Notes: generated by a model from the letters alone, not told the origin. DNA of 64,000 nt from an uncultured Acidimicrobiia bacterium (GCA_963761985.1 CAVXIT010000003.1:55237-119236), one strand, 5' to 3'; positions 2,028 through 42,884 are shown, numbered from the stretch's first letter. Numbers and translations are program-made.

Positions 2028-2165
2028 CTGTTTTCTCTCCTTGTTGGACGAAAGGCCCCAAACCTTTGATTGCGGACCTATTTGTCAGGCCCGGCAGGCG
2101 AGAACGCTCGCTGGGTTACCCGAGCATACCGATGAGCAGGGCCTGGGTCGGCCCGAATCGGGCGG

Positions 2166-3145
2166 TTACCTTTCCTCCGCGAATATGCGTTCGAGCACCT
2201 CCAGGTTGGCTATCGCGTCTTCGGGCGGCGTCGGGACTTCAGTGCCATGACGGATCGCCCGGGCAAAGGCATCTGCCTGGACTTGATACTGATCCGCGGC
2301 CGGGATCTCATGGATCGTCAGGCCCGGATCGGTCGGAGGCGATCCGCCCGCAAATTGGAGGATCCGGGTCGGCCGGTCGGGGGGAATGTTGAAGGGGATC
2401 TCGATCAGCAGCCTGCCGTTGGTCCCCTGGATATGGACTCGTTGATCGTCCTCGAGCTGGGTCGAGCAGGTAAAGGTGGCGTGACGGCCGTCGAAGTCGA
2501 GCAGCACCGAAGTGAGGACGTCGGTCTGGAACGACGGGTCGCGTCCGATCGCAGCTCGAACAGTCGTGGGCTCTTGACCGAACAACATCCTGGCGACGTT
2601 CACCGGATAACAACCGATGTCGTACAAGGACCCGCCACCGACAGCCGCGATATTGCGAATGTTTCCGGGATCCAGATTCCTATACGAGAAAAACGATTGG
2701 ATCGCGCGGAGCTCGCCGATGGCTCCTTCCTCGATCAGTCGTCTTGTCTCGACCCAAAGCGGATGAAGCCGATACATGAAGCGCTTCCATCAGCTTGACG
2801 TTGGCGGTCCGGGCGGCGGCGACCATCGACTTCGCTTCATCACTGGTCATCGCCAGAGGCTTCTCGCAGAGAATGTGCTTTCCCGCTGCGGCGGCGGCGT
2901 ACGTCCACCGGGCGTGCAGGTGATTGGGAAGCGGGATGTAGACCGCTTCGATCTCGGGGTCGGCCAGGAGGGCTTCATAAGAGCCGTACGGCTTCTCGAT
3001 GTCGAGCTCCCGGGCGCAGCTTTGGCAGCGACGTCCATCGAACGAGAGGCGATCGCCCTTCACGCGGCCCGAGTTGCGACCGCTGGATCGCCGGAATGAC
3101 CTTCTTGCGGGCGATGTTGGCGGCTCCCAACACTCCCCACGCCAA
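2166..3145 (-). pseudogene. Gfo/Idh/MocA family oxidoreductase, at least 3 frameshifts
   Basis: The Rossmann N-terminus 'LAWGVLGAANIARKKVIPAIQRSQLG' (TTG at 3145) is in one frame and 'AIASRSMDVAAKAA' in a second. 'RELDIEKPYGSYEALLADPEIEAVYIPLPNHLHARWTYAAAAAGKHILCEKPLAMTSDEAKSMVAAARTANVKLMEA' (2680..3063) is in a third. The C-terminal half 'MYRLHPLWVETRRLIEEGAIGELRAIQSFF...' (2166..2777) shifts again. Confidence 0.65.
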
Positions 3146-4874: not shown

Positions 4875-4882
4875 CCAACGCG

Positions 4883-6256
4883 ATGCTGCCCAAAGCCATC
4901 TTGCAACGTGTTGAGCTCCCCGATTTTGGTCCGCCCGGGCCAATGCCCGAGATTCCGGCTCACATCTATCGAGACCGCGTCGCACGTCTCCGCGAGATGG
5001 CCGACTCTCGCGGGTACGACGCCGTGGTCGTATATGCCGACCGCGAACACAGCGCCAACGTGTCCTACCTATCTGGTTTCGACCCGCGCTTCGAAGAGGC
5101 TTTGTTGATTATCGGGCGAGAGCCCGAGCCGGCAATCCTGGTGGGCAACGAGTGCTGGGGAATGGCCGGGGCGGCGCCGCTGGAAATGCGGAGGCACCGA
5201 TTCCAAGACTTCAGCCTGCCGAATCAGCCGCGCGACCTGTCGCGACCTCTCTCGGCGATCCTCACCGGGGAAGGAATCGGTCCGGGGACGCGGGTGGGCG
5301 TCGTGGGGTGGAAGACATTTGCCGAGAGATCCCTTACCGACGTTCCCGCCTATCTCGCGGACGCCATCCGCAACCTGACCGCAGGCGAGATCGAGAACGC
5401 GACCGACCTTCTCATCGATCCCGGCTTTGGTCTGCGGGTAGTCAACGAGATCGAGCAGCTGGTGATGTTCGAGTACGCCGCATGTGCAACCTCGAGCGGA
5501 CTCCGTCGCCTGCTCTTTGGTCTCCAACCCGGGATGACGGAGCAAGAGGCAGTGCGTTTGCTCGAATGGAACGGGATGCCGCTGTCATGTCATCTGATGT
5601 TGACCGCCGGCCCGCGAGCCAGCCTTGGTTTGCTCAGTCCCTCCGATCGCCCGATCGCGCGTGGCGATCCTTTTACGGTGGCGTTCGGGATTTGGGGTGC
5701 CCTCAATTGCCGAGCCGGATTCGTGGCGGAGAATCGCGAAGAACTCCCTTCCGGCATCAGGGACTATGTCGAGCGTCTGGTCGCTCCCTATTTTGAGGCG
5801 GTTGTCGAGTGGTACCACGCCTTGCACGTCGGGCAGGAGGGGGCCGTTCTTCAACAGATCATCGACCGGAGACTCCACGACCCTTTCTTTGGAATCTTTC
5901 TCAACCCCGGCCATCAACTGCATCTCGACGAATGGGTCAACTCGCCAATATGGCCGGGTTCGCCGGTCAAGTTGGCCTCGGGCATGGCTATGCAAGTCGA
6001 CATCATCCCGGCCACAGGAACCGAGTACTTCACGACGAATATCGAAGACGGGATCGTCCTGGCGGACGAGGATCTCAGGAAGCGGTGGGCGGCCGACTAT
6101 CCGGACTCATGGCTGCGAATCGAGAGTCGTCGGGGGTTCATGCGGGAACAACTCGGCATCGAGCTTCATGACGATGTCCTCCCGCTCTCGAACATCCCTG
6201 CGTATCTACCACCGTTCTTGTTGAGCCCCGATCACGTCATGACCATGGCCGGCTAG
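4883..6256 (+). CDS. Creatinase/prolidase-fold (M24-like) protein
   Basis: Intact 457-aa ORF from ATG 4883, 8 nt after the upstream stop. The N-terminal domain is creatinase/prolidase-like ('YDAVVVYADREHSANVSYLSGFDPRFEEALLIIG'). The C-terminal pita-bread-like part includes 'GMAMQVDIIPATGTEYFTTNIEDGIVLADEDL'. Confidence 0.55.
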   Translation: MLPKAILQRVELPDFGPPGPMPEIPAHIYRDRVARLREMADSRGYDAVVVYADREHSANVSYLSGFDPRFEEALLIIGREPEPAILVGNECWGMAGAAPLEMRRHRFQDFSLPNQPRDLSRPLSAILTGEGIGPGTRVGVVGWKTFAERSLTDVPAYLADAIRNLTAGEIENATDLLIDPGFGLRVVNEIEQLVMFEYAACATSSGLRRLLFGLQPGMTEQEAVRLLEWNGMPLSCHLMLTAGPRASLGLLSPSDRPIARGDPFTVAFGIWGALNCRAGFVAENREELPSGIRDYVERLVAPYFEAVVEWYHALHVGQEGAVLQQIIDRRLHDPFFGIFLNPGHQLHLDEWVNSPIWPGSPVKLASGMAMQVDIIPATGTEYFTTNIEDGIVLADEDLRKRWAADYPDSWLRIESRRGFMREQLGIELHDDVLPLSNIPAYLPPFLLSPDHVMTMAG

Positions 6257-7794
6257 CCGGCGTCGATGGCGTCCGCGATCAGCCAGCGACCTCCCTCACC
6301 GGGTGTGAGTACGAAGACCGAGTCGAATGGAAGCGGCGTACGAGCGAGCTCAGCGCCCGAGACGTCGTATTCGATCATGGTCTTGGTGCCGGACGCCTCC
6401 ATCGCCAGGCTGGCTCCACCCTGGGGGCCGTCGGTAAAAGCGACATCCAACTCCAACCTCTCGAATTCGTAGTCGGTCACTACCAATCGGCCGTTGGTCG
6501 CCGCCGCTTCGATGTTGCGTTCCATGGCCAGCAGTCGGGCTCCCACAGAGGCGGCGCGAAGGAGACTTGTGTCCGCCGTGAGCATTGCTTGGTTTTCGAT
6601 CAAGAGCGCCTCGGCAAAACCGGCGGCCACGTCGACGGGATCGGCGGAGGATGCGTGATTCAGGGCAGCCGCGTCTGAAGAGACCGACACAGGGGGCAGC
6701 GATGATCGATCGACTTGAGCGCTGATGGTTGCCGGGACCGACGGGCGCACGACAGGGGCTCCACGCGCCGGCGCTCCCGCAGCCACGATTCCGGTTGCCA
6801 GCAACACCGCAATTGCTCCCACCGCGGCACCTGAAACGAAGGCGGGACGAACCGAAGTGAGGCGCCCCAGGCGCAAATCGGAAAACCGGGCCGAATAACG
6901 ATCGATGGCGAATCGAAGCGGGGTGAGAAGTACGAGTCCTGCGAGCAGGCCAACCTTGGCTCCGAACTCAGTGCTTTGCGATGCCATCAGCAAGGTGCAG
7001 GTGATTCCGAGAATCGACGAGAACCAAATCCGGCCAGCGCGCCCCGAGGGAATCGTCTTCGGATCGGTGATCATGAAAAAGAGGAAGATCAAGAGCTCCG
7101 GGGACGTCATCACGGCCCCCCAGAAGTTGAAACCGCACACCGGGTTCAGCGACCAGGCAGCAGTGATGCAATGTCCCGAGGCTGAGAGCACGCCGAGCCC
7201 CGCCGCCAGGGACATCCAGAACGTTGCGGCCAACACCAAAAGCTTGAGGCGCGCGGTGATGAGCAGCCCGCCGGTCAGGATGATCAGGTATGCGACAACC
7301 ATGCCGGCGGTGAGCGGCGCCCACCAGAAGTCGAGCGGTTCGATGATGTTCGAGCCGAGGACGAGAAAGGCGACGACCAGCCCCAGGTTCGAGGGGTTGA
7401 ACAGATGCGACCCCCGATAACGGATCACGTATTTGGACACGAGCGAAAGGCCGGCGACCAGCGCGAACAAATGCCAGCCCCGCCAGGACCAGTGGTCCCC
7501 GCGTTCCTGCCCCACGATCCGCAGAATGAGGGCCACACCGCTCCCGGTCAGCATCGCGCTGGCCGGCCAGACGATCTCTTTACGGGTGACAAATACCCAG
7601 GCGACTTCGATCAGGGCTGAAGTCAGAATCGCGGCGAGAATCTGGGGAATTGAAACCCGAAACCCGAGCGCGACCTGGCCAAGAATGTGAACGGAGATGA
7701 TGACTGCCGCAAGATGGAGGCGTGGATCTCGGATGTTCGGCAGGACGACCGGATAGGTCGCCGCTCCGAGACGCATCGTCCTCGCCGTCATCAA
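6253..7794 (-). CDS. Polytopic membrane protein, RnfD/NqrB-like (UnbU-like) core with a soluble C-terminal domain
   Basis: 513-aa intact ORF with about 8-9 hydrophobic spans. RnfD-like motifs 'ASAMLTGSGVALIL' and 'HLFNPSNLGLVVAFLVLG' are present. The C-terminal ~170 aa are non-membrane. The UnbU assignment is from memory of the UnbU/UnbV pairing, so it is low certainty. Confidence 0.55.
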   Translation of the reverse strand: MMTARTMRLGAATYPVVLPNIRDPRLHLAAVIISVHILGQVALGFRVSIPQILAAILTSALIEVAWVFVTRKEIVWPASAMLTGSGVALILRIVGQERGDHWSWRGWHLFALVAGLSLVSKYVIRYRGSHLFNPSNLGLVVAFLVLGSNIIEPLDFWWAPLTAGMVVAYLIILTGGLLITARLKLLVLAATFWMSLAAGLGVLSASGHCITAAWSLNPVCGFNFWGAVMTSPELLIFLFFMITDPKTIPSGRAGRIWFSSILGITCTLLMASQSTEFGAKVGLLAGLVLLTPLRFAIDRYSARFSDLRLGRLTSVRPAFVSGAAVGAIAVLLATGIVAAGAPARGAPVVRPSVPATISAQVDRSSLPPVSVSSDAAALNHASSADPVDVAAGFAEALLIENQAMLTADTSLLRAASVGARLLAMERNIEAAATNGRLVVTDYEFERLELDVAFTDGPQGGASLAMEASGTKTMIEYDVSGAELARTPLPFDSVFVLTPGEGGRWLIADAIDAG

Positions 7795-7871
7795 TCCATT
7801 CTGGCGTATCGTGGCGCCCCCAAATTGATCAAATTGGCGTAGGCGATGACACCAAGAATGGATTGTTCAGG

Positions 7872-8480
7872 ATGAATTACAACTACGAGCGGTTTGACGA
7901 GTACGTCGAGTCGGGCGAGGACGAGAAGGAGTTCTCGACGTTTTTCGATCAGCTCCATGCCGGTGATCCTGCGCCAAATGCCACTCTGACCTCACTTGCC
8001 GGCGGTGCCAAGGTCCGTCTGGCGGACTTCTGGGCAAACCGAAACCTCGTGATCGAATTCGGCTCCTATACCTGACCGTACTGCTCGGTAGAGGGTCCTC
8101 TACTTTGCGATATCGCTGAGAAGTTCGAAGACACCAATTGGGTCTTCATCTACACCCGGGAAGCTCATCCAGGCGAAAAAATTGGAGCGCAACAGAGTTT
8201 CCAGGAAAAGGTGGCCAACGCCACACGGCTCCGAGATGAGATCGGAATCCGGCGGCCGATATTGGTCGACGATCTCGAGGGCTCGGCGCATCATGCGTAC
8301 GGGTTGCTGCCCAACATGACCTGGGTCATCGGACGTGGTGGCCGGATCATCTACAAGGCAGACTGGACGAGCGCGGCCAACGTCGAGGCTTTCCTGGAGA
8401 GGCATGAATCGGGCCGATCACGCCGACCCACGGCAGGGATTGTTGCGCCCCTATCTCACCGAGCAAGTCGAATTTCGTGA
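7872..8480 (+). CDS. Thioredoxin-fold, iodothyronine-deiodinase-like protein with in-frame TGA (candidate selenocysteine) at 8073..8075
   Basis: ORFs 7722..8075 and 8211..8480 share a frame, and the only interruption is TGA 8073..8075. Read-through gives '...NLVIEFGSYT-U-PYCSVEGPLLCDIAEKFEDTNWVFIYTREAHPGEKIG...'. That is a UxxC motif where deiodinase/Trx-like proteins carry Cys/Sec ('FGSxT[C/U]P', 'EAHP'). The 3' end may continue in the +1 frame to 8586 (see findings). Confidence 0.55.
8087..8104 (+). promoter_or_regulatory. Candidate bacterial SECIS hairpin
   Basis: 'GGUAGAG-GGUC-CUCUACU' is a 6-7 bp stem with a GGUC tetraloop. It begins exactly 11 nt after the UGA. As I recall it, the E. 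coli fdhF minimal SECIS 'GGUUGCAGGUCUGCACC' has the same spacing and loop. Confidence 0.5.
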
Positions 8481-8609
8481 CCTGGACCGCCCGAAGTTCT
8501 ATTCGCTCCTTGAGCGCAACGGGCCGCGGGCGCGGAGCGAGTTCCATCGGGCTGAGGAGATTTGGCGACTTCGGGAGAGTTCCTAGATCCGTACCATCGC
8601 TTCCCGATC

Positions 8610-9668
8610 ATGATCGTCGCCGAAATTCTGCGCGGCCTCGTTGGGGACAAGGCCGCCAATTGGGACCCAGTCGGCCTTCAGTTAGGCGACGCCGACGCTG
8701 AAGCGAGCTCCGTCGGCGTGTGTCATGAGGTAACGAATCGCGTCGTCGAGGAGGCTGGAGACCTCGACCTTCTGATCACCTATCACCCTCTTCTGTTCCG
8801 GCCCACTCAGCGATTGCGAGCCGGTCACGGCGCCGAAGGTCGCGCCCTGCAGCTGATCAAGCGTGGCGTGAACCTGGCCGTCGTACACACCGGATGGGAC
8901 GCAGCACCGGGCGGAACCGCCGACGCACTGGCCGCCACGATCGGCCTCACCGACGTCAGGAGCTTCGGTTTGATCGAGCCGGCGCTTCGCAAAAAGCTGG
9001 TCACGTTCGTTCCTGCCGAGGCGGTAGACGCGGTTACTAACGCTCTAGTCGATGCGGGAGCAGGAACAATTGGCAACTATCGAGGCTGCTCGTTCCGCTC
9101 CGAGGGTGTCGGCACCTTTCGGCCCGAGATCGGAGCGTCACCGACCATCGGAAAGGTGGGAGAAGAAGAAAAGGTGGGCGAAGTCCGCCTCGAAATGCTC
9201 CTCGCCCCTGGCGGAGCGGGTGCGGCGGTGGCCGCCCTGATTCGGTCTCACCCTTACGAGGAGCCGGCATTTGACCTCATCGACACGGTTTCAAACGCTG
9301 GTCTCATCGGTCGAGTCGGAACGTTCGAGGGGAATCTTGCGGACTTGAGCGCAACGCTCCGCTCGCGCTTGAGAAGCGATCCGCGCATTTCCATCCCCGC
9401 CCAGGAAAACGTGCAAAGAGTCGCGGTGCTCCCCGGATCCGGGGGATCATTCATTGCCGACGCCGCTGCGAGCGGGGCTGACGTCTATGTGACCGGCGAC
9501 ATCAGCCACCACCAGTTTGTCGAGGCGGCGGATCGCGGATTGAGCGCAATAGACGTCGGCCATGCCGCGAGCGAACAGCCCGGGGTGAAGGCGCTGTTTG
9601 ACCTCGTCGCCAAAATGATCCCCGACGTGATGGATCTTTCCTACGACCCGACCCCGTGGCACCAATGA
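8610..9668 (+). CDS. Nif3-like dinuclear metal centre protein (YqfO/NIF3 family)
   Basis: 'MIVAEILRGLVGDKAANWDPVGLQLGD...LLITYHPLLFRP...GSGGSFIADAAASGADVYVTGDISHH'. Confidence 0.85.
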   Translation: MIVAEILRGLVGDKAANWDPVGLQLGDADAEASSVGVCHEVTNRVVEEAGDLDLLITYHPLLFRPTQRLRAGHGAEGRALQLIKRGVNLAVVHTGWDAAPGGTADALAATIGLTDVRSFGLIEPALRKKLVTFVPAEAVDAVTNALVDAGAGTIGNYRGCSFRSEGVGTFRPEIGASPTIGKVGEEEKVGEVRLEMLLAPGGAGAAVAALIRSHPYEEPAFDLIDTVSNAGLIGRVGTFEGNLADLSATLRSRLRSDPRISIPAQENVQRVAVLPGSGGSFIADAAASGADVYVTGDISHHQFVEAADRGLSAIDVGHAASEQPGVKALFDLVAKMIPDVMDLSYDPTPWHQ

Positions 9669-10375
9669 CTCTGGACTCCGGTCTCTCAGATCTGCTCGAC
9701 CTCCAAGACGTCGATCTGGCGATCGATCGGCTCCTCCATCAGCGTCAAACCCTGCCCGTACTCGCCGAGTATCAGGCAACCGGGGGAGTGCGGGACGGAG
9801 TTGCCGCCCGGCTGGCCGAGCGGAACGACGCCCTCCGCCAAGCTGAACGGGACCTTGACAAGGCCGAAGGGGAACTAGAGATCCTGGAGGCCAAGCTCAA
9901 GGAAAGCGAGACGCGCCTTTTCGCCGGCGGAATGAGCGGGCGGGAGACCGAACAAAAGCGTCTCGAGGTCCAATCGTTGCGCGGCCAGCAGGCGACGATG
10001 GAGTCAAGAGTGCTCGGGCTCATCGAGGTCGTCGATCCGATGCGCGAAGAGTCGAACCTTCTCGAGAGAGAGCTAGCTCGCCATAACGAGAAGCTTGCGG
10101 GCCACGAAGCCGAGATCGCCGCGGCCTGGGCGGAGATCGATGCCCAAATTGCCCGCCGGGAGGAGACCAAGGCCGAGCTGGCCAAACCGATCTCCGCCGA
10201 TCTCATGATCCTCTACGAACAGCTGCGTCGCTCGAAGCAAGGGGTGGCAGTCGGACGGCTCACCGCTGGGGTTTGTGGCGGCTGTCATCTCAGCCTTTCT
10301 TTACCCGAGCAAGCCGAGGCTGCCGACTGGGACCCGCCCCGCTGCATCCACTGCATGCGGATCCTGGTGCTTTGA
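9665..10375 (+). CDS. Coiled-coil / C4 zinc-ribbon protein (COG1579 family)
   Basis: ATGA overlap with the NIF3 stop. Long coiled coil, then 'CGGCHLSLSLPEQ...PPRCIHCMRILV'. This is the classic NIF3 neighbour. Confidence 0.8.
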   Translation: MTLDSGLSDLLDLQDVDLAIDRLLHQRQTLPVLAEYQATGGVRDGVAARLAERNDALRQAERDLDKAEGELEILEAKLKESETRLFAGGMSGRETEQKRLEVQSLRGQQATMESRVLGLIEVVDPMREESNLLERELARHNEKLAGHEAEIAAAWAEIDAQIARREETKAELAKPISADLMILYEQLRRSKQGVAVGRLTAGVCGGCHLSLSLPEQAEAADWDPPRCIHCMRILVL

Positions 10376-10789
10376 GTGCCAGGAACCTGGGTCCTATATA
10401 CCGACGGCGCTTCGCGCGGTAACCCGGGCCCGGCATCGATCGGAGCCGTTCTCTACAGCTGGGTCGAGGGCGAACCTTTGGTCGAAGTCGATCGCGTCAG
10501 CGAGGCCATCGGGGAGGCCACCAACAACGTGGCCGAATACCGCGCCGTAATCGCGGGGCTCAAGATTGCTCAGGCCCAGGAGCCGGATTTGCTCTGGTTG
10601 CGAGCGGACAGCTTGCTCTTGATCCGACAACTCGAAGGTCGGTTCAAAGTCAAGAATCCTGCTCTGATCGAACTCCATCGCCAGGCTCGCGCCTCCCTCG
10701 AGAACTTTCCTTATCGCCTGGAGCACGTGCCTCGCGAGCAGAACACCGTGGCCGATCGCCTGGCGAATCTCGCGCTCGACCTCAGGTAG
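10376..10789 (+). CDS. rnhA: Ribonuclease H family protein
   Basis: 'YTDGASRGNPGPASIGAVLY', 'NNVAEYRAVIAGL', 'HVPREQNTVADRLAN'. Confidence 0.8.
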   Translation: MPGTWVLYTDGASRGNPGPASIGAVLYSWVEGEPLVEVDRVSEAIGEATNNVAEYRAVIAGLKIAQAQEPDLLWLRADSLLLIRQLEGRFKVKNPALIELHRQARASLENFPYRLEHVPREQNTVADRLANLALDLR

Positions 10790-10792
10790 ACC

Positions 10793-11236
10793 TTGCTCCT
10801 CTGGCACGTCGCTGGCGCCATCTTCTTGTTCGGATGGATCTTTCGCGATCCCAAAGTCGACGTCCGCCTGTTGGCTTTGGGCGCCTTGACCCCTGACGTT
10901 GTCGACTTCGTCGTCGGGCTTTTTGTGGGTGGTGTCACAGTGTCCCGGATCGGCCACTCGCTCCTCCTTCCGACTCTGACCGCTGTGGCAATTCTCCTGA
11001 CGACCCGGCGCGGACGTCGCCGGCGGAATTTGATGACCCTGGTGGTCGCCTGGCTTTTTCACCTCGTGCTGCAAGGGACTTGGTTCGATGGCGAGGTCTT
11101 CCTTTGGCCGTTCCTCGGCGCGGAGCTGGCGCCATCCCTGCCGGGCACCATCTGGACGCGCGCCGCTGAACCCTGGCGCTGGGTGAAGGAAGCGGCCGGC
11201 TTTGTCTACCTGTGGACCCGGCTACGGTCGCCCTGA
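10793..11236 (+). CDS. Membrane-bound metal-dependent hydrolase-like protein (YdjM/DUF457-like)
   Basis: 147-aa hydrophobic ORF packed tightly between neighbours. Contains 'LTPDVVDFVVG...HSLLLP'. Confidence 0.45.
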   Translation: MLLWHVAGAIFLFGWIFRDPKVDVRLLALGALTPDVVDFVVGLFVGGVTVSRIGHSLLLPTLTAVAILLTTRRGRRRRNLMTLVVAWLFHLVLQGTWFDGEVFLWPFLGAELAPSLPGTIWTRAAEPWRWVKEAAGFVYLWTRLRSP

Positions 11237-12210
11237 TGGAGCTTGCCGTCAGCGCGACCAGCCCGGGATGGTCCGTCGCTCAGCTGGCTGAGCTGTGCGA
11301 GTTCGCTGAAGGGCTCGGATTTCGACAGGCTTGGGAAGCCGAAGTGGCGGGACCCGATCCGTTCGTTCTCGCCACGGCCATCGCGGCACGCACCAAAACA
11401 ATGGAGATAGGTGTAGCCGCGGTTCCCGTCTACACGCGCAGCGCTACCACGTTGGCGACATCGGCTCTCTCGGTTAGCAACGTGCTCGGTGGGCGGACCT
11501 TTCGTCTAGGCCTGGGCAGCTCGAGCGAGGTGATCGTCTCGGGATGGCACGGCCTGGATTTCACGGACCATCTCCGCCGGGTGCGGGAAACGGTCGAAAG
11601 CATCCGGGCGATTCTCAATGGGGACGCTGAGTACGTCGGAAAGACCATTTCGATGAGGAAGTTTCGACCAGCTGTGTCTCCCGCGGGTCCAGTTGAGGTC
11701 TGGGTGGCAGGCCTGCGACCGCGCATGCTGGCGCTGGCCGGAGCTGTCGCAGATGGCGTGTGTCTCAATCTGATGCCGCCTCGTGTCGTCTACGACCAAC
11801 TCGCTGCGGTAGCGGGCGGGGCTGAATCCGCAGGCAGAGAGACTCCGAAAGGGGTAATGGCGCGCCTTCAGGTGCTGGTGACCGATAACGCTCGATCAGC
11901 GCGCGCAATGCTCCGCTCCGAGTTTCTCGGTCCGTATCTGGCTCAACCGGTATACAACCGCTTCCTCGATTGGATGGGATATCCCGAGGAGGCCCAAGCC
12001 ATCGCAGAGGCGTGGGGCCGGCGCGATCGGTCGGCGTTGGCCGCCTCGATTCCCGATCGCCTGGTTGATGAGCTTGCTCTGATCGGCAATCGTTCCGAGG
12101 TCAGGGCACGCCTCGACGACTTCGCGGAGGCGGGGGTGACCGTGGCCGCCATATCCGTTCTGGTTCCGGACCGTCAGGTCGTCGAAGAAACTCTGCGATC
12201 CCTAGTTTGA
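11236..12210 (+). CDS. LLM-class (luciferase-like) flavin/F420-dependent oxidoreductase
   Basis: ATG 11236 overlaps the upstream stop (TGATG). 'LGFRQAWEAEVAGPDPFVLATAIAARTKTMEIGVAAVPVYTRS'. Confidence 0.75.
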   Translation: MELAVSATSPGWSVAQLAELCEFAEGLGFRQAWEAEVAGPDPFVLATAIAARTKTMEIGVAAVPVYTRSATTLATSALSVSNVLGGRTFRLGLGSSSEVIVSGWHGLDFTDHLRRVRETVESIRAILNGDAEYVGKTISMRKFRPAVSPAGPVEVWVAGLRPRMLALAGAVADGVCLNLMPPRVVYDQLAAVAGGAESAGRETPKGVMARLQVLVTDNARSARAMLRSEFLGPYLAQPVYNRFLDWMGYPEEAQAIAEAWGRRDRSALAASIPDRLVDELALIGNRSEVRARLDDFAEAGVTVAAISVLVPDRQVVEETLRSLV

Positions 12211-30373: not shown

Positions 30374-30402
30374 TATCTGATATCTGACGTCTGATGTCTG
30401 AC
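30374..30402. repeat. Heptad-phased TCAGA array (site C, inverted orientation)
   Basis: 'taTCTGAtaTCTGAcgTCTGAtgTCTGAca' has four TCTGA units at 7-bp phase. It lies between the small-ORF start (30363) and the VanW stop (30405). Confidence 0.7.
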
Positions 30403-30404
30403 AT

Positions 30405-32348
30405 CTATCCGGCTGCCGTCGTGGGGACCGTATCGCCGGGAATGGTGGTTGGTGGCGCGAGAGTTGTCGTCGGGGGGCACGACACTCCGGAGTCCTGGAT
30501 TTGGCAGGGATGGACCAGGATGATCTGTTGGCGTGGCGAGTAGACCACTGTCCATTGTTGCTCTGTGGTCTCGTCTCCAACCGTGATGAACCGGGTCACG
30601 TCGACCTTGTATCCCTGGGCGGGGGACTGGTCTTCGTCCTGATCCGGCGGAACAATTGCCGGATCTCCGATGTATCGGGGCGGTGGAGGCTCCCGGAAGT
30701 CATAGCGGTCAGAGACTTCCGCCCGCACATGACGTGCATTCGGCCCTCCTTCGGCGGTTGGAGAAACTCGCAGCGCCCCACCGCTCTGTTCGCCGACGAG
30801 GATGCGGCCATCGTTGTCGCTGTAAAAGACGACGGTGATAGAGGTGTTGGAGGCGAAGGTCCTGATGAGGATCGCGCTGTCGGTGTTGTTGCGAAAGCGG
30901 ACGTCGGGCAGCGGCCATGAGATCGTCGCCTCGATTCCCAGCGGATAGCGGCTGAAGTAGAAGCTGTGCGGCTTGTGGGCAATGTCTTCATAGCCACCCC
31001 AGAAAACTGCGTTATAGAAGGTGGTGGCGAACTGACTGACCCCGCCGCCGATCTCCTTCTCGAGCCGGCCCGCAACGATGGCACCGTCTTCCAGGTAACC
31101 CTTCTCGACGGTCCGCTCGCCGACGTGGTCGTTGACCGAGAAGGTCGCACCCGCAGGAACAATGACGCCGTCGATCGCAGCAGCGATCAACCCGATGTTC
31201 GTCACGCGGTTCTGACAGCAATCGTGGTACGTGGTGAATTGACTGACCTTGTGATTGATGTTGAGCGCCTCGAGCTCTTCGGTGGTGACTTCGGGTTCCA
31301 CCGACTCATCGATGGGGAGCAGACCTGAACGCGCCGCTGACCGAGCCGCCACCAGTGCGTTCTCGGCCGTGGTTTCCGGATTGAGATCAGTTCCTTTCCG
31401 GCCAGGTATCACCTGCGCAAAGTCGCCTTCGACCACGAGCTCGGCGTTGACCGGTTCTTCTTCGAGGTCAGCGCGTAATGGCTCGAGATATTCGGAGAAC
31501 GCCTCGGGGTCAAAGCGGAACTCGATCGTGTTTTCTCCAACGACCGGTTCTAAGGCTGCCGCCAGTTGCTCGACGGAAAAGGTGACTTCCTTATCGCGGT
31601 CGGGATTGCGCAAAGTGATCGGCCCCGCCAGCAGCAACTCACCGGTTCGAACTCCGGCTTCGATATCGGCGATGGTAAGGGTCGGCAGCTGATCGATCAC
31701 TGGGAGATCAGTGGGAGAGCGAAGGCTGGTCGACGATTGCGCCAGAACGATGTTGGGGGCCTGGTTGCGATCGATTTGGCGACCCGAGCGGGGGGGTTCC
31801 CCGAGGACCTGGGTGCCTTCGATCGTGATTGCACCAGCGAAGGGTGGGCTACCGATCGCCTCGACGTCCCAGTTACTCAGGACCTCTTCGAGCGCGGCCG
31901 GGTCGATTCGCGCCTGGACCGGGATCTCGGTCGATCCAAAGAGATGGCTGATCCACCAAGCGAATTCTCCCAAGGGATTACCGCTCCGGCCTATCAACAT
32001 GGCTGCCTGAACCATGGCCCGCTCGTTGATGTCGAAGCCAACACTCAAAGGTTCGAGCTGGAGTTCCGTACCTTCCACCCGAAAAGTGGCGGGGCTCGAC
32101 CCGAGGTCGGACTCCAGTTCGGCGAGCGCGGATTCGGCTTCGGCAGGTGCCAACCCGCCGAGTTGAGCCCGATCAGCAGTGACCGTCCCGAGGATCTGGC
32201 CCGCTGAGGCGGCCCGTGAGATGGCGTACACGACCAACACCAGAGCCACCAAGCCCAAAACGACGAGACCCCAGCGATTCCGGATGAACACGTTCGGGCT
32301 CGAGGTTGGGGTCTTTTCGGTAGTGGGCGCGGTCAATTCGGAAGTCAT
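30405..32348 (-). CDS. VanW/YoaR-family protein with N-terminal membrane anchor
   Basis: 647 aa. VanW core 'GVIVPAGATFSVNDHVGERTVEKGYLEDGAI...GGGVSQFATTFYNAVFWGGYE...HSFYFSRYPLGIEATI'. Confidence 0.8.
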   Translation of the reverse strand: MTSELTAPTTEKTPTSSPNVFIRNRWGLVVLGLVALVLVVYAISRAASAGQILGTVTADRAQLGGLAPAEAESALAELESDLGSSPATFRVEGTELQLEPLSVGFDINERAMVQAAMLIGRSGNPLGEFAWWISHLFGSTEIPVQARIDPAALEEVLSNWDVEAIGSPPFAGAITIEGTQVLGEPPRSGRQIDRNQAPNIVLAQSSTSLRSPTDLPVIDQLPTLTIADIEAGVRTGELLLAGPITLRNPDRDKEVTFSVEQLAAALEPVVGENTIEFRFDPEAFSEYLEPLRADLEEEPVNAELVVEGDFAQVIPGRKGTDLNPETTAENALVAARSAARSGLLPIDESVEPEVTTEELEALNINHKVSQFTTYHDCCQNRVTNIGLIAAAIDGVIVPAGATFSVNDHVGERTVEKGYLEDGAIVAGRLEKEIGGGVSQFATTFYNAVFWGGYEDIAHKPHSFYFSRYPLGIEATISWPLPDVRFRNNTDSAILIRTFASNTSITVVFYSDNDGRILVGEQSGGALRVSPTAEGGPNARHVRAEVSDRYDFREPPPPRYIGDPAIVPPDQDEDQSPAQGYKVDVTRFITVGDETTEQQWTVVYSPRQQIILVHPCQIQDSGVSCPPTTTLAPPTTIPGDTVPTTAAG

Positions 32349-32360
32349 AGTGGATTCCCC

Positions 32361-32459
32361 CCAAACTCAATTATTTGGGCTCAATTATTTGGACTCCAAA
32401 TGATCGGGGCAGGCAAGTCTAGAAGCGCCCAAACCGATCAAATTTGGGCTGATCAAATT
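32361..32459. promoter_or_regulatory. AT-rich divergent intergenic region with direct and inverted CCAAA/TTTGG repeats
   Basis: 'CTCAATTATTTGG' occurs twice (32366..32378, 32380..32392). 'GCCCAAAccgatcaaaTTTGGGC' is a palindrome (32427..32449). 'GATCAAATT' occurs twice (32435, 32451). Confidence 0.35.
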
Positions 32460-32521
32460 AGGCAGCCCTGGCGGTTCGAAGAGGACTAGAACTGTCGGCG
32501 GGTCAACGTACGATTTGACTC

Positions 32522-33307
32522 GTGATCGCCTTTCCGACGATGCGGGCTGGTCCTGCGCTCAAAGTCTCAGCCACGACTTACGTTGCGTTCTCGCGGTGCC
32601 CTGCTCAGGCTCAGGCTCGCTTCGATGAGAAGGCTTATCCGAACGAATCGAGGGATTCGTTCCGCGGCGCTCTGGTACATCGTTTGATCGCCCGGCACAT
32701 GCGCTCTGGGCCCATCGAGGATGTCGAGCAGGCGGCCCGCATGGAGATCGGAGCCGCACTCAACGGAAAGATGGTGGGCCTTGGTGTCAATCGCCCTTCG
32801 CTGCTCGATCCGATCATCGCCGAAGCATCCGACCTCTATCGGAGGTTTTGCCTGTATCCGATGGATGGCTTCGAAGACGCCGAGTTCGCAGTGGATCATG
32901 AGCTCGAGGGCGCGGTGACGCTGGTTGGCAAGATCGACGGGGTCTTCACCGAAGGTCGAACAAAGGTGCTGCGCGATTGGAAGACCGGTGTGTTGGGTCA
33001 GCCCTTCGACCAACTCCTCTTCTACGCACTGCTCTGGCTGCTCGCCCGGGGTGAGTTGGCTCGTGTCGAGGCGATCTCGTTGCAAACGGGGGAGCGAGAC
33101 ATCCTGGAACCGACAGCGGCAGATTTGCAGGCAGTGGCTAACCGCCTGGGCTTGCTGGTGAACGAGATTCGATCGGTTTGGGTAGGGGAGACAACTTCAC
33201 AGAAAGTTGCCGGGCCCTGGTGTCAGTATTGCCCGATTCTCGCGGGCTGCGCAGAAGGGCAAGCAACTTCGACGATGTTGGCGGCGGGGTACCGTGCTCG
33301 ACAGTGA
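32522..33307 (+). CDS. Cas4/AddB-type PD-(D/E)XK nuclease with 4-Cys Fe-S cluster signature
   Basis: N-terminal Cys 'AFSRCPAQ'. Nuclease core 'GKIDGVF...KVLRDWKTG'. 'DQLLFYALLW' is the QxxxY motif. C-terminal 'WCQYCPILAGC' gives CX2CX5C. Confidence 0.7.
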   Translation: MIAFPTMRAGPALKVSATTYVAFSRCPAQAQARFDEKAYPNESRDSFRGALVHRLIARHMRSGPIEDVEQAARMEIGAALNGKMVGLGVNRPSLLDPIIAEASDLYRRFCLYPMDGFEDAEFAVDHELEGAVTLVGKIDGVFTEGRTKVLRDWKTGVLGQPFDQLLFYALLWLLARGELARVEAISLQTGERDILEPTAADLQAVANRLGLLVNEIRSVWVGETTSQKVAGPWCQYCPILAGCAEGQATSTMLAAGYRARQ

Positions 33308-34362
33308 GCCGGCGGCGATCACGTCTACATAGCGCACTCTCCCGGTTGGCAGGTGAGCTGGACTTTCTTGGCTCGTTCACCGCACAATCCGCGCACCTCG
33401 AAGAGCTGCGGACAGAGGCACTGGGGACGATTCGCGATTACCTGTTGCCCCGTCTTGCACTGGCCAACCCGCCCATGCTGATTGCCTTGATCGGATCCAC
33501 CGGAGCAGGGAAATCGACCTTGCTCAACTCATTGGCAGGTCAAGTGATCTCCCCGGCCGGAGCTTTGCGGCCCACCACCAAGGCGTCCCGCTATTGGACC
33601 TCCAGCGAGCATGTCGCTTGGTTAGCGCCCGAAAGCAGCCACATCGAGATTGGGACCCATCCCTTGCTCGAGAGAATTGTGCTGATCGACACCCCTGATC
33701 TCGACTCGGATCTCATCGAACATCGCAAGGAAGCGCTGGCCGTCGCCGACCAGGCTGATGTGATTCTCTTCGTCACTACTGCCACCCGCTACGGCGACGC
33801 GGTCGTCTGGGAGACGCTGACCAGGCTCGCCGCCGATCGTCGCGTCGTTGTGGTTCTCAATCGCACCCCCAGCCGGGCCACCGGGGCTCGGAACGATCTC
33901 CAGGCGAGGTTGCGCCGGGCCGGGCTGGATGACGTTGCGCTTTTCACGATCAGCGAGCAAAGAATTGCCTCCGGGCGCAACCGGCTTTCACCCCAGGCCG
34001 TTCAGCGGGTGGCGGCATACCTGCGCTCAGTCCCGCGCACTTTGTCCAGGGTGGAGGTGATGGCCGACCGAACTGCTGCGGTCCTGGGCGATCTCCTGGA
34101 GGGAATCTCCGAGAGCAATCGACGGGAGGAGCAAAAGCAGGCAGCGATCGATGAAGAAAGGAGCCGCATCGAGGAGGAGGTTCAAAAGCATTCGCGCCGC
34201 CGGTGGCGGCGCAGTCGATCGCTCCCATCCGAAGTTCTGGCAGCGTTCCGGCGACTCGACGGGTTGCGGGCAACGATTGAACCGCCGGTTCCCCTCGACG
34301 CTTTGCGCGCCGGTCGCGAGGTCCTGACGGACGCGGACTTTGAGGGAATCTGGGGTGAGTGA
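33304..34362 (+). CDS. P-loop GTPase-like protein 1 (dynamin/YfjP-like small form, deviant G3/G4)
   Basis: GTGA overlap with the nuclease stop. G1 'GSTGAGKSTLLNSL', G2 'RPTTK', G3 'IDTPDLDS' (DxxG Gly replaced by Asp), G4 position 'LNRTPS'. Confidence 0.65.
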   Translation: MSRRRSRLHSALSRLAGELDFLGSFTAQSAHLEELRTEALGTIRDYLLPRLALANPPMLIALIGSTGAGKSTLLNSLAGQVISPAGALRPTTKASRYWTSSEHVAWLAPESSHIEIGTHPLLERIVLIDTPDLDSDLIEHRKEALAVADQADVILFVTTATRYGDAVVWETLTRLAADRRVVVVLNRTPSRATGARNDLQARLRRAGLDDVALFTISEQRIASGRNRLSPQAVQRVAAYLRSVPRTLSRVEVMADRTAAVLGDLLEGISESNRREEQKQAAIDEERSRIEEEVQKHSRRRWRRSRSLPSEVLAAFRRLDGLRATIEPPVPLDALRAGREVLTDADFEGIWGE

Positions 34363-35455
34363 TCAAATTCGGTTGCTCGACCTGCTCGATCGGCTGGCGG
34401 CCAACGCACGCCTGCATCTCCCTCCGTCAGCGCTTGAGACTGTCGAGCATGCCGCGCGCCGGATGCGGAGACGCCGGCACTTCAGCGGATTCACCAGCCT
34501 GGTGGGAATCGCCGGGGGCACAGGATCCGGCAAGTCGAGCCTTTTCAACGCGATGTCCGAAACCGAACTGGCCGAACCAGGTGCTCAGCGGCCAACCACC
34601 TCTACCCCCCTGGTCTTGGTTCCCGACGTGCACGATTCCCGGCTGACAAACCTGTGGGTAGAGCTCGGCATCTCCGAGGTCGAGGTCAGCGAGGGCGACC
34701 TGGGATTTGTCCTCATCGACCTTCCCGACATCGATTCGCTCGATCCGTCTCATCGCCAGGAGGTCGAACTACTCCTGTTGGACCTCGACGTCGTCATGTG
34801 GGTGACCGATCCGGAGAAGTATCGCGACCGGGTTTTGCACGATCAGTTCCTTCGCCCGCTTCGCAGCCACGCCGGAAGGTTTGTTTTCGTGCTCAACCAG
34901 ATCGATCGCTTGAGCGACTCCGAGTTGGAGGAAGTGCGAAATGATTTGGTCTGGTCGCTCCGTCAGGACGGTTTCGAGGATCCAGAGGTTTGGACAGTTG
35001 CTGCCGACCCTCCTCTCGGCCCACCCGAAGGGATCGAAGAACTGACGGAGGCGATCCGCGTTGCGGCCATGGCCCAGGCTCCCAAGACTCAGGATGGATC
35101 GGAGGGCCGGGCGCGAGTTGAGATCGCCCGGATACTCCAAGTCATCGAACCCCACATCGCCCCGCTCGATTTCAACTCGCGCTGGGAATCTCTGCTCAGC
35201 CAGGTCTCTGCATCGTGGCCGCAGAGCAGCGGAGAGCTCAGCGAGTTCGTCGATCAACTTCGAGTTGAAGCGCACGAGTTGAGCTCCGTCGACACACTGA
35301 CGTTGCTCGACGACGTGCCTACTGCTGGAGCCGAAGCTATCTCCCGTCATCTCGATCGAACAATCGGTGCGGCTTTGCGAGCAGCGTTGCGACCTCGCGC
35401 CATGAGTCGCGCCATTGCCGCCGAGCTTCAACTAGCCCTGGCCGAAGGCATCTAG
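34355..35455 (+). CDS. P-loop GTPase-like protein 2 (paralogous architecture)
   Basis: Overlaps the stop of GTPase 1 (alternative TTG start at 34340). G1 'GGTGSGKSSLFNAM', G2 'RPTTS', G3 'IDLPDIDS', G4 'LNQIDRL'. Confidence 0.65.
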   Translation: MSDQIRLLDLLDRLAANARLHLPPSALETVEHAARRMRRRRHFSGFTSLVGIAGGTGSGKSSLFNAMSETELAEPGAQRPTTSTPLVLVPDVHDSRLTNLWVELGISEVEVSEGDLGFVLIDLPDIDSLDPSHRQEVELLLLDLDVVMWVTDPEKYRDRVLHDQFLRPLRSHAGRFVFVLNQIDRLSDSELEEVRNDLVWSLRQDGFEDPEVWTVAADPPLGPPEGIEELTEAIRVAAMAQAPKTQDGSEGRARVEIARILQVIEPHIAPLDFNSRWESLLSQVSASWPQSSGELSEFVDQLRVEAHELSSVDTLTLLDDVPTAGAEAISRHLDRTIGAALRAALRPRAMSRAIAAELQLALAEGI

Positions 35456-35477: not shown

Positions 35478-35996
35478 GTGCAGCAGTGGCTCGATGAGAT
35501 CGTCGCCAGCGCCTTTGTCGCGGGGATGTTCGTGATTGGCTATCTCCTCATCGCCCGGCTCGGCTTGAGATATGTCCAGCGGCAGGGTCAAAGCGAAAGT
35601 CGGGCCGCAACTCTGTGGGCGATGTTGCGGCGTGCGCTCCTGTTAGCGATTCTCGTCACCGCACTTCTCACCATCCTGTCTGGAGTTTGGCGCCTGCCGA
35701 TCACCCCGTTCCTGGCGGTGGCTTCGGCTCTCGGGGTGGCACTGGGGTTTGGCGCCCAAAAGCTGGTGCAGGATGTGATCGCCGGGTTCTTCATCCTCCT
35801 CGAAGATCAATTCCGGATTGGAAACCTGGTCTCAATCGCCGGAGTGACGGGCGAGGTGGCCGATATCAGGCTGAGAATCACGGTTCTCAAAGCTGACGAC
35901 GGCACCACCCACTATGTCCCCAACGGAGAAGTCAAGGTGGCGACCAACCTGACTAAGTCCCGAGCGGCACCACCAGCTGGATCGCCTCAGCCGTAG
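35478..35996 (+). CDS. MscS-family mechanosensitive channel, short form (C-terminal alpha/beta domain missing)
   Basis: 'GVALGFGAQKLVQDVIAGFFILLEDQFRIGNLVSIAGVTGEVADIRLRITVLKADDGTTHYVPNG'. It has only 172 aa, and its 3' end overlaps the convergent lipid kinase gene by 44 nt. Confidence 0.6.
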   Translation: MQQWLDEIVASAFVAGMFVIGYLLIARLGLRYVQRQGQSESRAATLWAMLRRALLLAILVTALLTILSGVWRLPITPFLAVASALGVALGFGAQKLVQDVIAGFFILLEDQFRIGNLVSIAGVTGEVADIRLRITVLKADDGTTHYVPNGEVKVATNLTKSRAAPPAGSPQP

Positions 35997-36879
35997 AGAC
36001 GGCAGTCGCCTCTTTCCAGCTGCCCGTCAACTCGCCGTCGGCCTGTCCTTCCACGGGGGGATCGGCCTCGATGGTGAAGGACTCGACGTTCTCCCAGACC
36101 GTGAGGCCCGGAACCGAATTGAGGTTCCGTCGAGCGAGGACGGCCGCGGCAATGCGCGGTAATCGTCGGCCGGGAAGACCCTCGGCGATCAGGAGGGTCA
36201 TTGGAGCGGGTTCCAGTTTGGAAAGAGTCAGCGGGAGCCGACCGAAGTAGGTGTAAACCGGATGAAACTGCACCAGCACGGCGACGGCATCCGCAGTCCG
36301 TTCTGACGTAGCGATCCTGATGTTGGGCTGGCGATCACGGAAACCGCGGAGGAGGGTGGTGATTGCATTTCGGGCATAGTGCAGACCGCCAAACCAGTAC
36401 TTGCGGTATGGCTCGCCTTCGGCAGCCTTGACGACTTCGGCATCGAAGCCGAAGCCTGCTGCGAACAGGGCGTGACGTCGCGCCGGACCGGAATCGTTCA
36501 CTCCGTCGAGAGTCAGCACCGGCACTCGCACACGTCGGTGCTCACCTTCGAGGAGTCGGGCGGCGGAGGTCGCCTTGTGCGGGATGTGGTAGAGGCGCGA
36601 CAAGACGTTGGTAGTGCCGGTGGGTATGACTGCGAGGGCGGTTTCGGTGCCAACAAGGGCTTGACCGACGTGGTGCGCGACTCCATCTCCGCCCATTGCA
36701 GCGACGACGTCGACTCCATCTTCAACGGCTTGCGAAGTCAGCTGGCGGGCGTGCAGCGCCGTTTGCGGCCACACGGCCTCGACCTCGAACTTGCGGGAAA
36801 GAATACGACCGACGGTGCGATGAATACCGCCGGTAAATTGGCTCGAGGCCGGATTCGCAATCAAGAGCAGACGTTGCAT
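35953..36879 (-). CDS. Diacylglycerol/lipid kinase family protein (YegS/DagK type)
   Basis: 'LLLIANPASS', 'VVAAMGGDGVAHHV', 'LAVIPTGTTNV'. Confidence 0.8.
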   Translation of the reverse strand: MQRLLLIANPASSQFTGGIHRTVGRILSRKFEVEAVWPQTALHARQLTSQAVEDGVDVVAAMGGDGVAHHVGQALVGTETALAVIPTGTTNVLSRLYHIPHKATSAARLLEGEHRRVRVPVLTLDGVNDSGPARRHALFAAGFGFDAEVVKAAEGEPYRKYWFGGLHYARNAITTLLRGFRDRQPNIRIATSERTADAVAVLVQFHPVYTYFGRLPLTLSKLEPAPMTLLIAEGLPGRRLPRIAAAVLARRNLNSVPGLTVWENVESFTIEADPPVEGQADGELTGSWKEATAVSTAEAIQLVVPLGT

Positions 36880-42503: not shown

Positions 42504-42884
42504 GGTCCCCTTGACCTCGTCGATGCCTTCTTGAGCCACTTCCTTCACGTCGGAGGCGGCTTCTTTGGCCGCTCCTTTGACGTCGGAGGCTGCTTCCTTG
42601 GCAGTGTCCTTGACGTCGCTCGCGCCTTCCTTGGCCGCATCGGCTACGTCAGCCGCTGCTTCGCCGGGAGTGGAGGAGCGCATGTCGCTTACCTTTTCCT
42701 TGCCCTTCTCCCAGGCGTCCTCGGCTGCGTCCTTGACCTTCTCCATCACCGGCCCAGCCTTTTCGACGCCTTCCTTGGCAACGTCCTTCGCCTTCTCGAC
42801 GAGCGGCCCGGCTTTCTCGACTGCGTCTTCGGCTAGCTCTTTGCCCTTCTCGACCATCCCTTTCAAAGTGTCTTTGATCGACAC
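42501..42884 (-). CDS. LEA-like / stress-type repeat protein (Lys/Glu/Ala-rich, 11-mer repeats)
   Basis: 'DVKDTAKEAAS DVKGAAKEAAS DVKEVAQEGID' and 'VEKAGPLVEKAKDVAKEGVEKAGPVMEKVKDAAEDA'. Confidence 0.55.
   Translation of the reverse strand: MSIKDTLKGMVEKGKELAEDAVEKAGPLVEKAKDVAKEGVEKAGPVMEKVKDAAEDAWEKGKEKVSDMRSSTPGEAAADVADAAKEGASDVKDTAKEAASDVKGAAKEAASDVKEVAQEGIDEVKGT

Follow-up and report, generated by a model that had tools for sequence, protein, structure and literature searches.

The best described relatives of the genes considered here are dynA and dynB of Streptomyces. DynB is anchored in the membrane, appears early at the division sites and recruits DynA in a manner that depends on nucleotide binding, and both proteins jointly stabilise or modulate Z-rings and septation (PMC8748795; bioRxiv 10.1101/2025.06.23.661029). 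The DynB protein, which is encoded by vnz_12105, possesses two transmembrane (TM) segments, via which it binds SepX and which are needed for this interaction (PMC8748795, Supplementary Fig. 5). Moreover, mutations in the P-loops of DynA and DynB affect function, and a dependence on GTP binding has been cited (bioRxiv 10.1101/2025.06.23.661029). It is already known that DynB orthologues are widespread in Actinobacteria (PMC8748795), and the DynAB homologues of unicellular bacteria have been described as rare, eroded remnants (bioRxiv 10.1101/2025.06.23.661029, Discussion). Here, we compare this system with a locus of an uncultured Acidimicrobiia bacterium, which is located on a stretch of 64,000 nt (GCA_963761985.1 CAVXIT010000003.1:55237-119236), the whole of which is called the window below. 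The locus consists of three overlapping open reading frames on the plus strand (ORF1 to ORF3, positions 32522-35455). It is probable, in our view, that ORF2 and ORF3 encode naturally minimised Acidimicrobiia versions of DynA and DynB, and that the nuclease gene ORF1 is an independent core-genome neighbour, which was coupled to the pair in this lineage by the loss of intervening genes.

ORF calling on the window placed ORF1 at 32522..33307, with a GTG start and a product of 261 amino acids (aa). ORF2 extends from the GTG at 33304 to the TGA ending at 34362 (352 aa), the longest possible frame opening at TTG 33178, and ORF3 from the GTG at 34355 to 35455 (366 aa). ORF1 and ORF2 overlap in the sequence GTGA (33304-33307), and ORF2 and ORF3 overlap by 8 nt, the GTG at 34355 lying upon the TGA at 34360-34362. 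The start of ORF1 is backed by an 88%-identical relative (L161), in which an ATG takes its place. For ORF2, the start is backed by the conserved N-terminus M/V-S/T-R-R-x-x-R-L of the homologues (MSRRRSRL in ORF2) and by the GTGA overlap of the nuclease and dynA-like genes, which recurs in L161, and for ORF3 by the closest homologue, which also has 366 aa and gives 100% coverage. The three linked reading frames of the original prediction are therefore confirmed in their coordinates, including both overlaps. The ratios of non-synonymous to synonymous substitution rates (dN/dS) in comparison with L161 are 0.10, 0.17 and 0.16 for ORF1, ORF2 and ORF3, respectively, and 0.08 for the MscS-like gene that follows ORF3. 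Judging from these values, the four genes are under purifying selection and not decaying.

ORF2 and ORF3 are paralogues sharing 32% identity across the G domain (E=2e-16), and both score above the cut-offs of the Pfam families Dynamin_N and MMR_HSR1, which confirms that they form a paralogue-like, dynamin-like pair, as had been supposed. Sequence searches yielded more than 1,100 homologues for each of the two proteins. The nearest ones are proteins of 350-420 aa from metagenome-assembled genomes (MAGs) of Acidimicrobiia, followed by proteins of 500-650 aa from Micrococcales, Cellulomonas and others, which are named "GTPase" or "dynamin family protein". An alignment of the ORF3 family was scanned against one genome per GTDB species, and DynA- and DynB-type genes were called at the 80 loci returned by using hidden Markov models made from the ORF2 and ORF3 homologue sets. 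These dynAB loci derive from Acidimicrobiia, Streptomyces, Cellulomonas and the Chloroflexota class Limnocylindria. Wherever a locus offered enough room, the DynA-type gene was found on the strand of the DynB-type gene and immediately 5' of it.

The published primers for cloning dynA of S. venezuelae (vnz_12110) specify (M)VTLDERP as the N-terminus of the product and ...LSVLQKEK, followed by the stop codon, as its C-terminus (PMC8748795, supplementary file 1). In line with these termini, the Streptomyces ORF2-type gene starts with VTLDVRPQ and finishes with ALSVLQKER. When its product is read from the primer-matched start, the P-loop lysine is K74, as in the published DynA(K74A) variant. The Streptomyces ORF3-type protein contains two hydrophobic helices near the C-terminus, which agree with the TM segments of DynB. 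ORF2 is 36% identical to Streptomyces DynA (E=4e-29, against E=6e-17 for DynB), and ORF3 is 39% identical to DynB (E=8e-39, against E=2e-13 for DynA). This reciprocal best similarity fixes the A/B assignment. Thus, as far as sequence comparison tells, DynA and DynB of Streptomyces have their Acidimicrobiia counterparts in ORF2 and ORF3, respectively. One of the options offered by the original prediction, a conserved actinobacterial housekeeping pair of unknown function, holds with respect to the housekeeping pair but not with respect to the function, because DynA and DynB have been studied in the cell division of Streptomyces.

Structural models of both proteins were generated with AlphaFold2 (AF2) from the family alignments and compared with the PDB by Foldseek. 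The models were predicted with high confidence, with a predicted local distance difference test (pLDDT) score of 91.9 and a predicted template modelling (pTM) score of 0.85 for ORF2, and of 93.8 and 0.86, respectively, for ORF3. In each model, helices at the N-terminus and at the C-terminus flank the G domain and together form a neck bundle. The best matches in the PDB were IniA from M. smegmatis, mini-mitofusin 1/2, truncated Fzo1, Cj-DLP1/2, the bacterial dynamin-like protein (BDLP) from Nostoc and EHD, with E values of 1e-9 to 1e-10 and TM-scores of 0.33-0.55. By their modelled fold, ORF2 and ORF3 are members of the dynamin superfamily of the BDLP/mitofusin type.

In the alignments, long DynA homologues have about 175 extra residues between positions ~296 and ~321 of ORF2, and long DynB homologues have about 125 extra residues between positions ~289 and ~326 of ORF3. 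The shortening of the window proteins is internal, the final C-terminal helices being kept. A search for a hydrophobic or TM segment in ORF2 and ORF3 found none. A TM hairpin is present in all 42 DynB-type homologues of at least 450 aa and in none of the clade of 350-370 aa to which ORF3 belongs, and the hairpin falls within the internal region that is missing from ORF3. In the sampled Acidimicrobiia-type loci, 33 of the 41 DynB-type proteins have no TM segment. The window clade thus comprises natural "mini" dynamin-like proteins that have kept the G domain and the neck and have lost the trunk and the tip, the latter bearing the two-helix membrane anchor in the case of DynB. What appears to be new is this compact, anchor-less architecture throughout an Acidimicrobiia clade, its maintenance under selection and the lineage-specific coupling to an Fe-S nuclease.

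Both proteins carry a P-loop and an RPTT motif. Their G3 motifs (DTPD in ORF2, DLPD in ORF3) and G4 motifs (NRTP in ORF2, NQID in ORF3) differ from the canonical DxxG and (N/T)KxD of the dynamin superfamily. Across 120 homologues of each protein, the P-loop and RPTT were found to be invariant or nearly so. Near-invariant were also D-[TA]-P-D-[LI]-D-S, R-Y-(G/A)-D and N-R-x-P in the DynA type, as well as D-L-P-D-x-D-S, D-P-E-K-Y-x-D and N-(Q/H)-x-D-R in the DynB type. The Streptomyces proteins belong to the same pattern, with DAPDIDS and RPTT in DynA, which has DRVP where NRxP stands in the DynA type, and with DLPDLDS, RPTT and LNQIDR in DynB. According to these alignments, the whole DynA/DynB family is defined by DxPDxDS with the replacement of Gly by Asp in switch II, by RPTT, and by NRxP in DynA and N(Q/H)xDR in DynB. 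The replacement, which had been noticed as a deviation in the two window proteins, is therefore real but no local peculiarity, since it is common to the entire family including Streptomyces. The placement of the P-loop, RPTT, switch II and G4 motifs was also borne out by the AF2 models, in which they are found at the ends of the expected beta strands. The DynB type retains the N...D of G4 and the DynA type lacks this Asp, for which reason the guanine specificity of DynA appears uncertain.

DynA/DynB-type pairs were also observed outside the Actinomycetota, namely in the five Limnocylindria loci L041, L042, L044, L047 and L063. These pairs have the same motifs (DAPDFDS, DLPDVDS), and their DynB proteins contain TM helices; at L047, a pyruvate kinase gene is present within ~5 kb upstream of the pair. 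In Cellulomonas soli (L067), two DynA-/DynB-type pairs lie in tandem within 10 kb (2065-5471 and 7656-11614), suggesting that the pair was duplicated in this lineage.

The ORF1 protein matches the Pfam family PDDEXK_1 with E=2.7e-15 (57.4 bits against a cut-off of 22). Its catalytic residues are E121, D139 in GKIDG, D152 and K154 in RDWK, and Q164 and Y168 in QLLFY, and the four cysteines predicted to hold an Fe-S cluster are C26 and the C-terminal C234-x2-C237-x5-C243. Every one of these residues is kept in at least 81 of 85 homologues. The nuclease signature noted originally (N-terminal Cys, IDG...RDWK, QLLFY and CX2CX5C) is thus present, and the catalytic residues stand up on alignment. Because of this conservation, ORF1 is likely to be an active RecB-type nuclease with an Fe-S cluster in the style of AddB and Cas4. 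A single-sequence search of the PDB with ORF1 gave no match. By using the family profile, the nuclease domain of M. smegmatis AdnB was found to be the closest solved relative (E=1e-7, against E=0.66 for Cas4). The designation as "Cas4-like" is justified insofar as ORF1 is an Fe-S nuclease of the RecB/AddB/Cas4 superfamily. However, it is not Cas4 proper, because it reached only 13.8 bits with TIGR00372 (cut-off 65) and the 64-kb window contains no CRISPR array, just as had been stated for the vicinity of the gene. The ORF1 family is narrow: at E<1e-30, it comprises 37 clusters (50% identity) among 1.84 billion representatives, and the named members all come from Acidimicrobiia or Actinomycetota MAGs. 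A large score gap separates it from the generic actinobacterial "RecB family exonuclease" proteins. ORF1 encodes a RecB-type Fe-S nuclease that is intact, conserved in its own right and specific to Acidimicrobiia. A distant stand-alone relative of the RecB family was observed in Corynebacterium mendelii (L162:8001-8906), where it is located beside Pup ligase, the ARC/Mpa ATPase and TrmI in the pupylation region and not beside dynAB.

The linkage between the nuclease and dynAB was analysed from both sides. Among 80 metagenome loci centred on the nuclease gene, 42 were informative (at least 1.5 kb of downstream sequence) and 25 of them had room of at least 4 kb. In every locus with room, a divergent VanW-like gene followed by the pyruvate kinase gene is present upstream of the nuclease. 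Of the 42 informative loci, 24 have dynAB downstream of the nuclease gene, and in only 6 of the 42 does it directly abut this gene; of the 25 loci offering 4 kb or more, dynAB follows in 17 and is missing from 8. In the dynAB-centred set of 80 GTDB loci, the nuclease occurs in Acidimicrobiia loci only, and it abuts dynA solely in the window and in the close relative L001. At the other Acidimicrobiia loci of this set, it is found 1-4 kb upstream of dynAB with one to four genes in between, or not at all within 10 kb, as at L012, L014 and L015. The same 80-locus scan showed no nuclease near dynAB in Streptomyces, Cellulomonas and Limnocylindria. The gene immediately 5' of dynA varies and may encode, for instance, an epimerase with a DUF1731 domain, a PIG-L deacetylase or a LigB-type protein beside a MarR regulator, and at several loci genes on the opposite strand are situated between the nuclease and dynA. 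The class-wide order is pyk, a small ORF, VanW (minus strand), nuclease, variable genes, dynA, dynB, often MscS, then DagK (minus strand) and ADP-ribosylglycohydrolase. In the sublineage of the window (window, L161, L001, L081, L082 and L088), the genes between the nuclease and dynA are absent. They were presumably lost, so that the stop codon of the nuclease gene came to overlap the start of dynA and one four-gene cluster arose. Co-transcription and translational coupling of the nuclease and dynA are therefore likely in the window, and an obligate joint function of the nuclease and dynAB is not indicated. The nuclease is a core-genome neighbour of dynAB whose constant partner is the VanW-like gene.

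In Streptomyces, the gene right after dynB (L029:11735-12316, plus strand; equivalent position in 38 loci) encodes a paralogue of the single-stranded DNA-binding protein (SSB) with ~158 aa and no acidic C-terminal tail, followed by a gene for a thioester-domain (TED) protein. The SSB paralogue SsbB, a protein of 156 aa, has been implicated in chromosome segregation during sporulation (PMC3616714). By its size and the lack of the tail, the Streptomyces gene product fits SsbB, and the presence of a DNA-binding gene next to dynAB parallels that of the nuclease in Acidimicrobiia.

It could be argued that the nuclease, the DynA-like and the DynB-like protein, perhaps together with the MscS-like protein, form a true functional housekeeping module coupling DNA processing to division. 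In such a module, the Fe-S nuclease would process or clear DNA where the septum closes or where replication forks are damaged, and the dynamin-like pair would act on the divisome. The overlapping starts and stops, including the GTGA in both the window and L161, speak for this idea, as do the same-strand position of the nuclease less than 4 kb upstream of dynAB in the 17 loci mentioned above, the tail-less SsbB-like SSB paralogue directly behind Streptomyces dynAB and the dynamin-like protein CrfC from E. coli, for which an action on nascent DNA has been reported (cited in PMC6104087). However, the nuclease is adjacent to dynA at only 6 of 42 loci and dynAB is missing from 8 of the 25 loci with room. 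Moreover, the intervening genes code for unrelated enzymes and, where they lie on the opposite strand, break co-transcription. The three Acidimicrobiia loci with dynAB and no nuclease within 10 kb upstream, the nuclease-free dynAB loci of Streptomyces, Cellulomonas and Limnocylindria, and the fact that the invariant neighbour of the nuclease is VanW rather than dynAB also argue against the module, which we consider unlikely. The module of nuclease and dual nucleoside triphosphatase (NTPase) suggested initially does not hold as a conserved unit, given the variable gene 5' of dynA, the rare abutment and the restriction of the nuclease to Acidimicrobiia among the dynAB loci. A large clade of unicellular Acidimicrobiia keeps a minimised DynA/DynB pair (G domain and neck) under purifying selection, and in the sublineage of the window this pair is likely coupled in translation to a dedicated Fe-S nuclease. 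Were the coupling functional, which we regard as quite unlikely, the result would be a dynamin-like machine without direct membrane binding that links DNA processing to septation.

The neighbourhood also bears on the proposal that ORF1-ORF3 constitute a relative of the Eleos system (LeoA/LeoBC) that defends against phages and has gained a nuclease effector. In PADLOC, ORF2 matches the LeoBC (E=7e-14) and LeoA (E=2.5e-8) models, and ORF1 matches DruK models (E=3e-7 and 4e-6) and, weakly, Cas4 models. But the LeoBC match is confined to the G domain, the LeoA match is weak and ORF3 matches neither of the two Leo models. The genes around the locus encode CcmB, CcmF, pyruvate kinase, VanW, MscS, DagK, ADP-ribosylglycohydrolase, SatD, a major facilitator superfamily (MFS) transporter, a zinc alcohol dehydrogenase and an aminotransferase, and none of these neighbours looks like a defence gene. 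The housekeeping neighbourhood is conserved across the class, the G+C content of ORF1-ORF3 (0.60-0.65) is that of the flanks, and the pair occurs in a fixed order at every Actinomycetota locus recovered by the scan. Moreover, the DynA/DynB family has been tied experimentally to cell division (PMC8748795). The locus is a core-genome cluster and not a defence island, and the suggested link to Eleos, which comes down to weak matches of ORF2 alone in a core housekeeping context, was given up; a defence function is very unlikely. In the databases, the ORF2 and ORF3 homologues bear names such as "GTPase", "50S ribosome-binding GTPase", "EngB", "EcfA2 ABC ATPase", "ABC transporter" and "hypothetical". 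A further explanation would group the two proteins with Era, Der or HflX as ordinary ribosome-associated GTPases. Weak NCBIfam and PDB matches to Era, Der (EngA) and HflX exist, which are limited to the P-loop region or the G domain, and PDB searches with ORF2 and ORF3, either as single sequences or as profiles, returned only P-loops or isolated G domains of ABC transporters, Der and HflX. However, the NCBIfam scores are far below the cut-offs (35.5 against 237 bits for Era, 28 against 307 for Der and 25.5 against 217 for HflX), neither protein has a KH or any other ribosome-binding domain, the fold of the whole protein is that of the dynamin superfamily and the G3 and G4 motifs are unlike those of the Era/Der type. 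Membership scores and fold together rule out this assignment, to which we give almost no credence. The ABC-like P-loop GxTGSGKSSL alone drives the profile matches, which explains the names of the "EcfA2" type. Names such as EngB and ABC transporter look like systematic misannotations.

For the compact DynA/DynB pair, which we favour, a mode of action can be proposed by analogy. The two proteins would bind nucleotide and, depending on it, pair via G domain and neck, and the pair may act at the division site, as suggested by what is known of the DynA/DynB family. Having neither trunk nor anchor, it would not be able to tether or remodel membranes in the manner of BDLP. Since the pair has no membrane anchor of its own, a partner protein or a peripheral interaction would be required for reaching the membrane or the divisome. 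Several points weigh against the favoured reading. The role in cell division is carried over from Streptomyces at 36-39% identity within the G domain only, and the properties of Streptomyces DynA and DynB are cited second-hand via PMC8748795 and bioRxiv 10.1101/2025.06.23.661029. The pair lacks the membrane anchor that defines DynB and mediates its contact with SepX, and the mode of action may therefore differ. Finally, the same-strand linkage within 4 kb in about two thirds of the loci and the overlap in the window could reflect a functional link rather than an inherited gene order.

The region between the VanW-like gene and ORF1 (32349..32521, 173 nt), which was characterised by its repeats and by an alignment with four relatives, separates two divergent genes and would contain their promoters. 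It contains two copies of CTCAATTATTTGG (14-nt tandem), two copies of GATCAAATT(T/A)GG (12-nt pair) and the palindrome ATTATTTGGA/TCCAAATGAT. The hexamer ATTTGG occurs four times inside 75 nt, compared with about 30 copies in the whole 64 kb. The AT-rich repeats of the ATTTGG type occupy 32365-32462 and are specific to the window; the segment is missing from L161, in spite of the 88% identity of this relative, and from L001, L081 and L082. The AT-rich repeats noted originally thus exist, but their absence from the closest relatives means that they provide no argument for conserved dedicated regulation, and they were rejected as a conserved operator. Two CTAGAA boxes, which are located about 60 nt apart in AAGTCTAGAAG (32415-32425) and GAAGAGGACTAGAACTGTCGG (32478-32498), are kept in the aligned relatives and may act as an operator at the promoters of the divergent VanW-like and nuclease genes. 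A -10-like TACGAT at 32509-32514 is also kept in the relatives. It ends 8 nt before the GTG start of ORF1, which suggests a leaderless or near-leaderless ORF1 mRNA. A scan with promoter and terminator consensus sequences found no sigma-70-like site, and terminator-like sites were at chance level. An Rfam scan of 28-40 kb gave no match.

Upstream of this region, the VanW-like protein with a PG_binding_4 domain is encoded on the minus strand (30405..32348), divergently from the nuclease (Pfam VanW 1.2e-40, PG_binding_4 3e-16). A tandem repeat with a 14-nt unit (x2.3) is present at its 3' end, on the stop side toward pyk (30375-30406), and another one with a 33-nt unit (x3) is found at 42527-42638 within a small minus-strand ORF (42504-42884). 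On the other side of the pair, the gene for the short MscS-like membrane protein (35478..35996, plus strand, 172 aa; Pfam MS_channel_2nd 1.5e-17, and synteny) begins 22 nt 3' of the dynB-like gene. It is a frequent, not a constant, downstream neighbour of dynB in Acidimicrobiia and is probably the last member of the co-directional cluster. The protein is unusually short (~277 aa in L014) and has no match to the Pfam models of the TM1 and C-terminal domains, both of which are matched by the L014 protein. At its 3' end, the gene shares 44 nt with the convergent DagK gene (35953-36879). As the short form is kept in L161 (177 aa) with the low dN/dS of 0.08, the gene is not a pseudogene. The idea that the MscS-like protein stands in for the lost DynB anchor was rejected, because TM-less DynB was not associated with MscS adjacency at the 41 loci. 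DynB proteins without TM segment had an MscS-like neighbour in 11 cases and none in 20, those with TM segment in 3 and 4 cases, respectively, a weak negative as the detection of MscS is imperfect.

The comparison gives a DynA/DynB identity to poorly named genes and removes a false lead toward a defence system. It also reveals that Acidimicrobiia, most sampled DynB-type proteins of which lack a TM anchor, have widely kept the pair under selection, which is at odds with the view of DynAB in unicellular bacteria as rare and eroded (bioRxiv 10.1101/2025.06.23.661029). No major paradigm is altered by this finding. However, a natural minimal pair that is small, soluble and confidently predicted could serve for studying heterotypic G-domain pairing and could show how the family-wide Gly-to-Asp replacement in switch II affects nucleotide hydrolysis.

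With respect to known systems, the locus is most similar to dynAB of Streptomyces, with which it shares adjacent genes in the order A then B, reciprocal best similarity, a dynamin-like G domain with a helical bundle and the motifs GxTGxGKS, RPTT, DxPDxDS, RY(G/A)D or DPEKY, and NRxP or N(Q/H)xDR. In contrast to the window proteins with 352 and 366 aa, the Streptomyces proteins have ~535 and more than 600 aa, and DynB has a long variable N-terminal extension that is lacking in ORF3. Moreover, Streptomyces is a sporulating filamentous organism, which the host of the window is not, and its dynAB genes are accompanied by genes for SsbB-like and TED-domain proteins instead of the nuclease, VanW and MscS. 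The nuclease encoded by ORF1 (32522..33307) resembles AdnB, AddB and Cas4 in the E, D, DxK and QxxxY motifs and has the N-terminal Cys and the C-terminal CX2CX5C; unlike AdnB and AddB, it is a stand-alone protein of 261 aa without helicase domains. Eleos is likewise made up of paired bacterial dynamin-like NTPases, LeoA and LeoBC, whose models are matched by ORF2. However, it differs in the motif set, in the lack of a match to ORF3 and in its defence context, as opposed to the core-genome context of the window. The structurally closest proteins, i.e. the mini-mitofusin and Fzo1 constructs (G domain and HB1), IniA, BDLP and Cj-DLP1/2, also consist of a G domain and a bundle of N- and C-terminal helices. 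They share merely 12-16% sequence identity with ORF2 and ORF3 and possess the canonical DxxG and (N/T)KxD motifs that the window proteins do not have. Unlike IniA, BDLP and Cj-DLP1/2, the compact DynA-like (33304..34362) and DynB-like (34355..35455) proteins have neither a trunk nor a membrane paddle, and their natural internal deletion leaves roughly what the engineered mini-MFN1 constructs keep.

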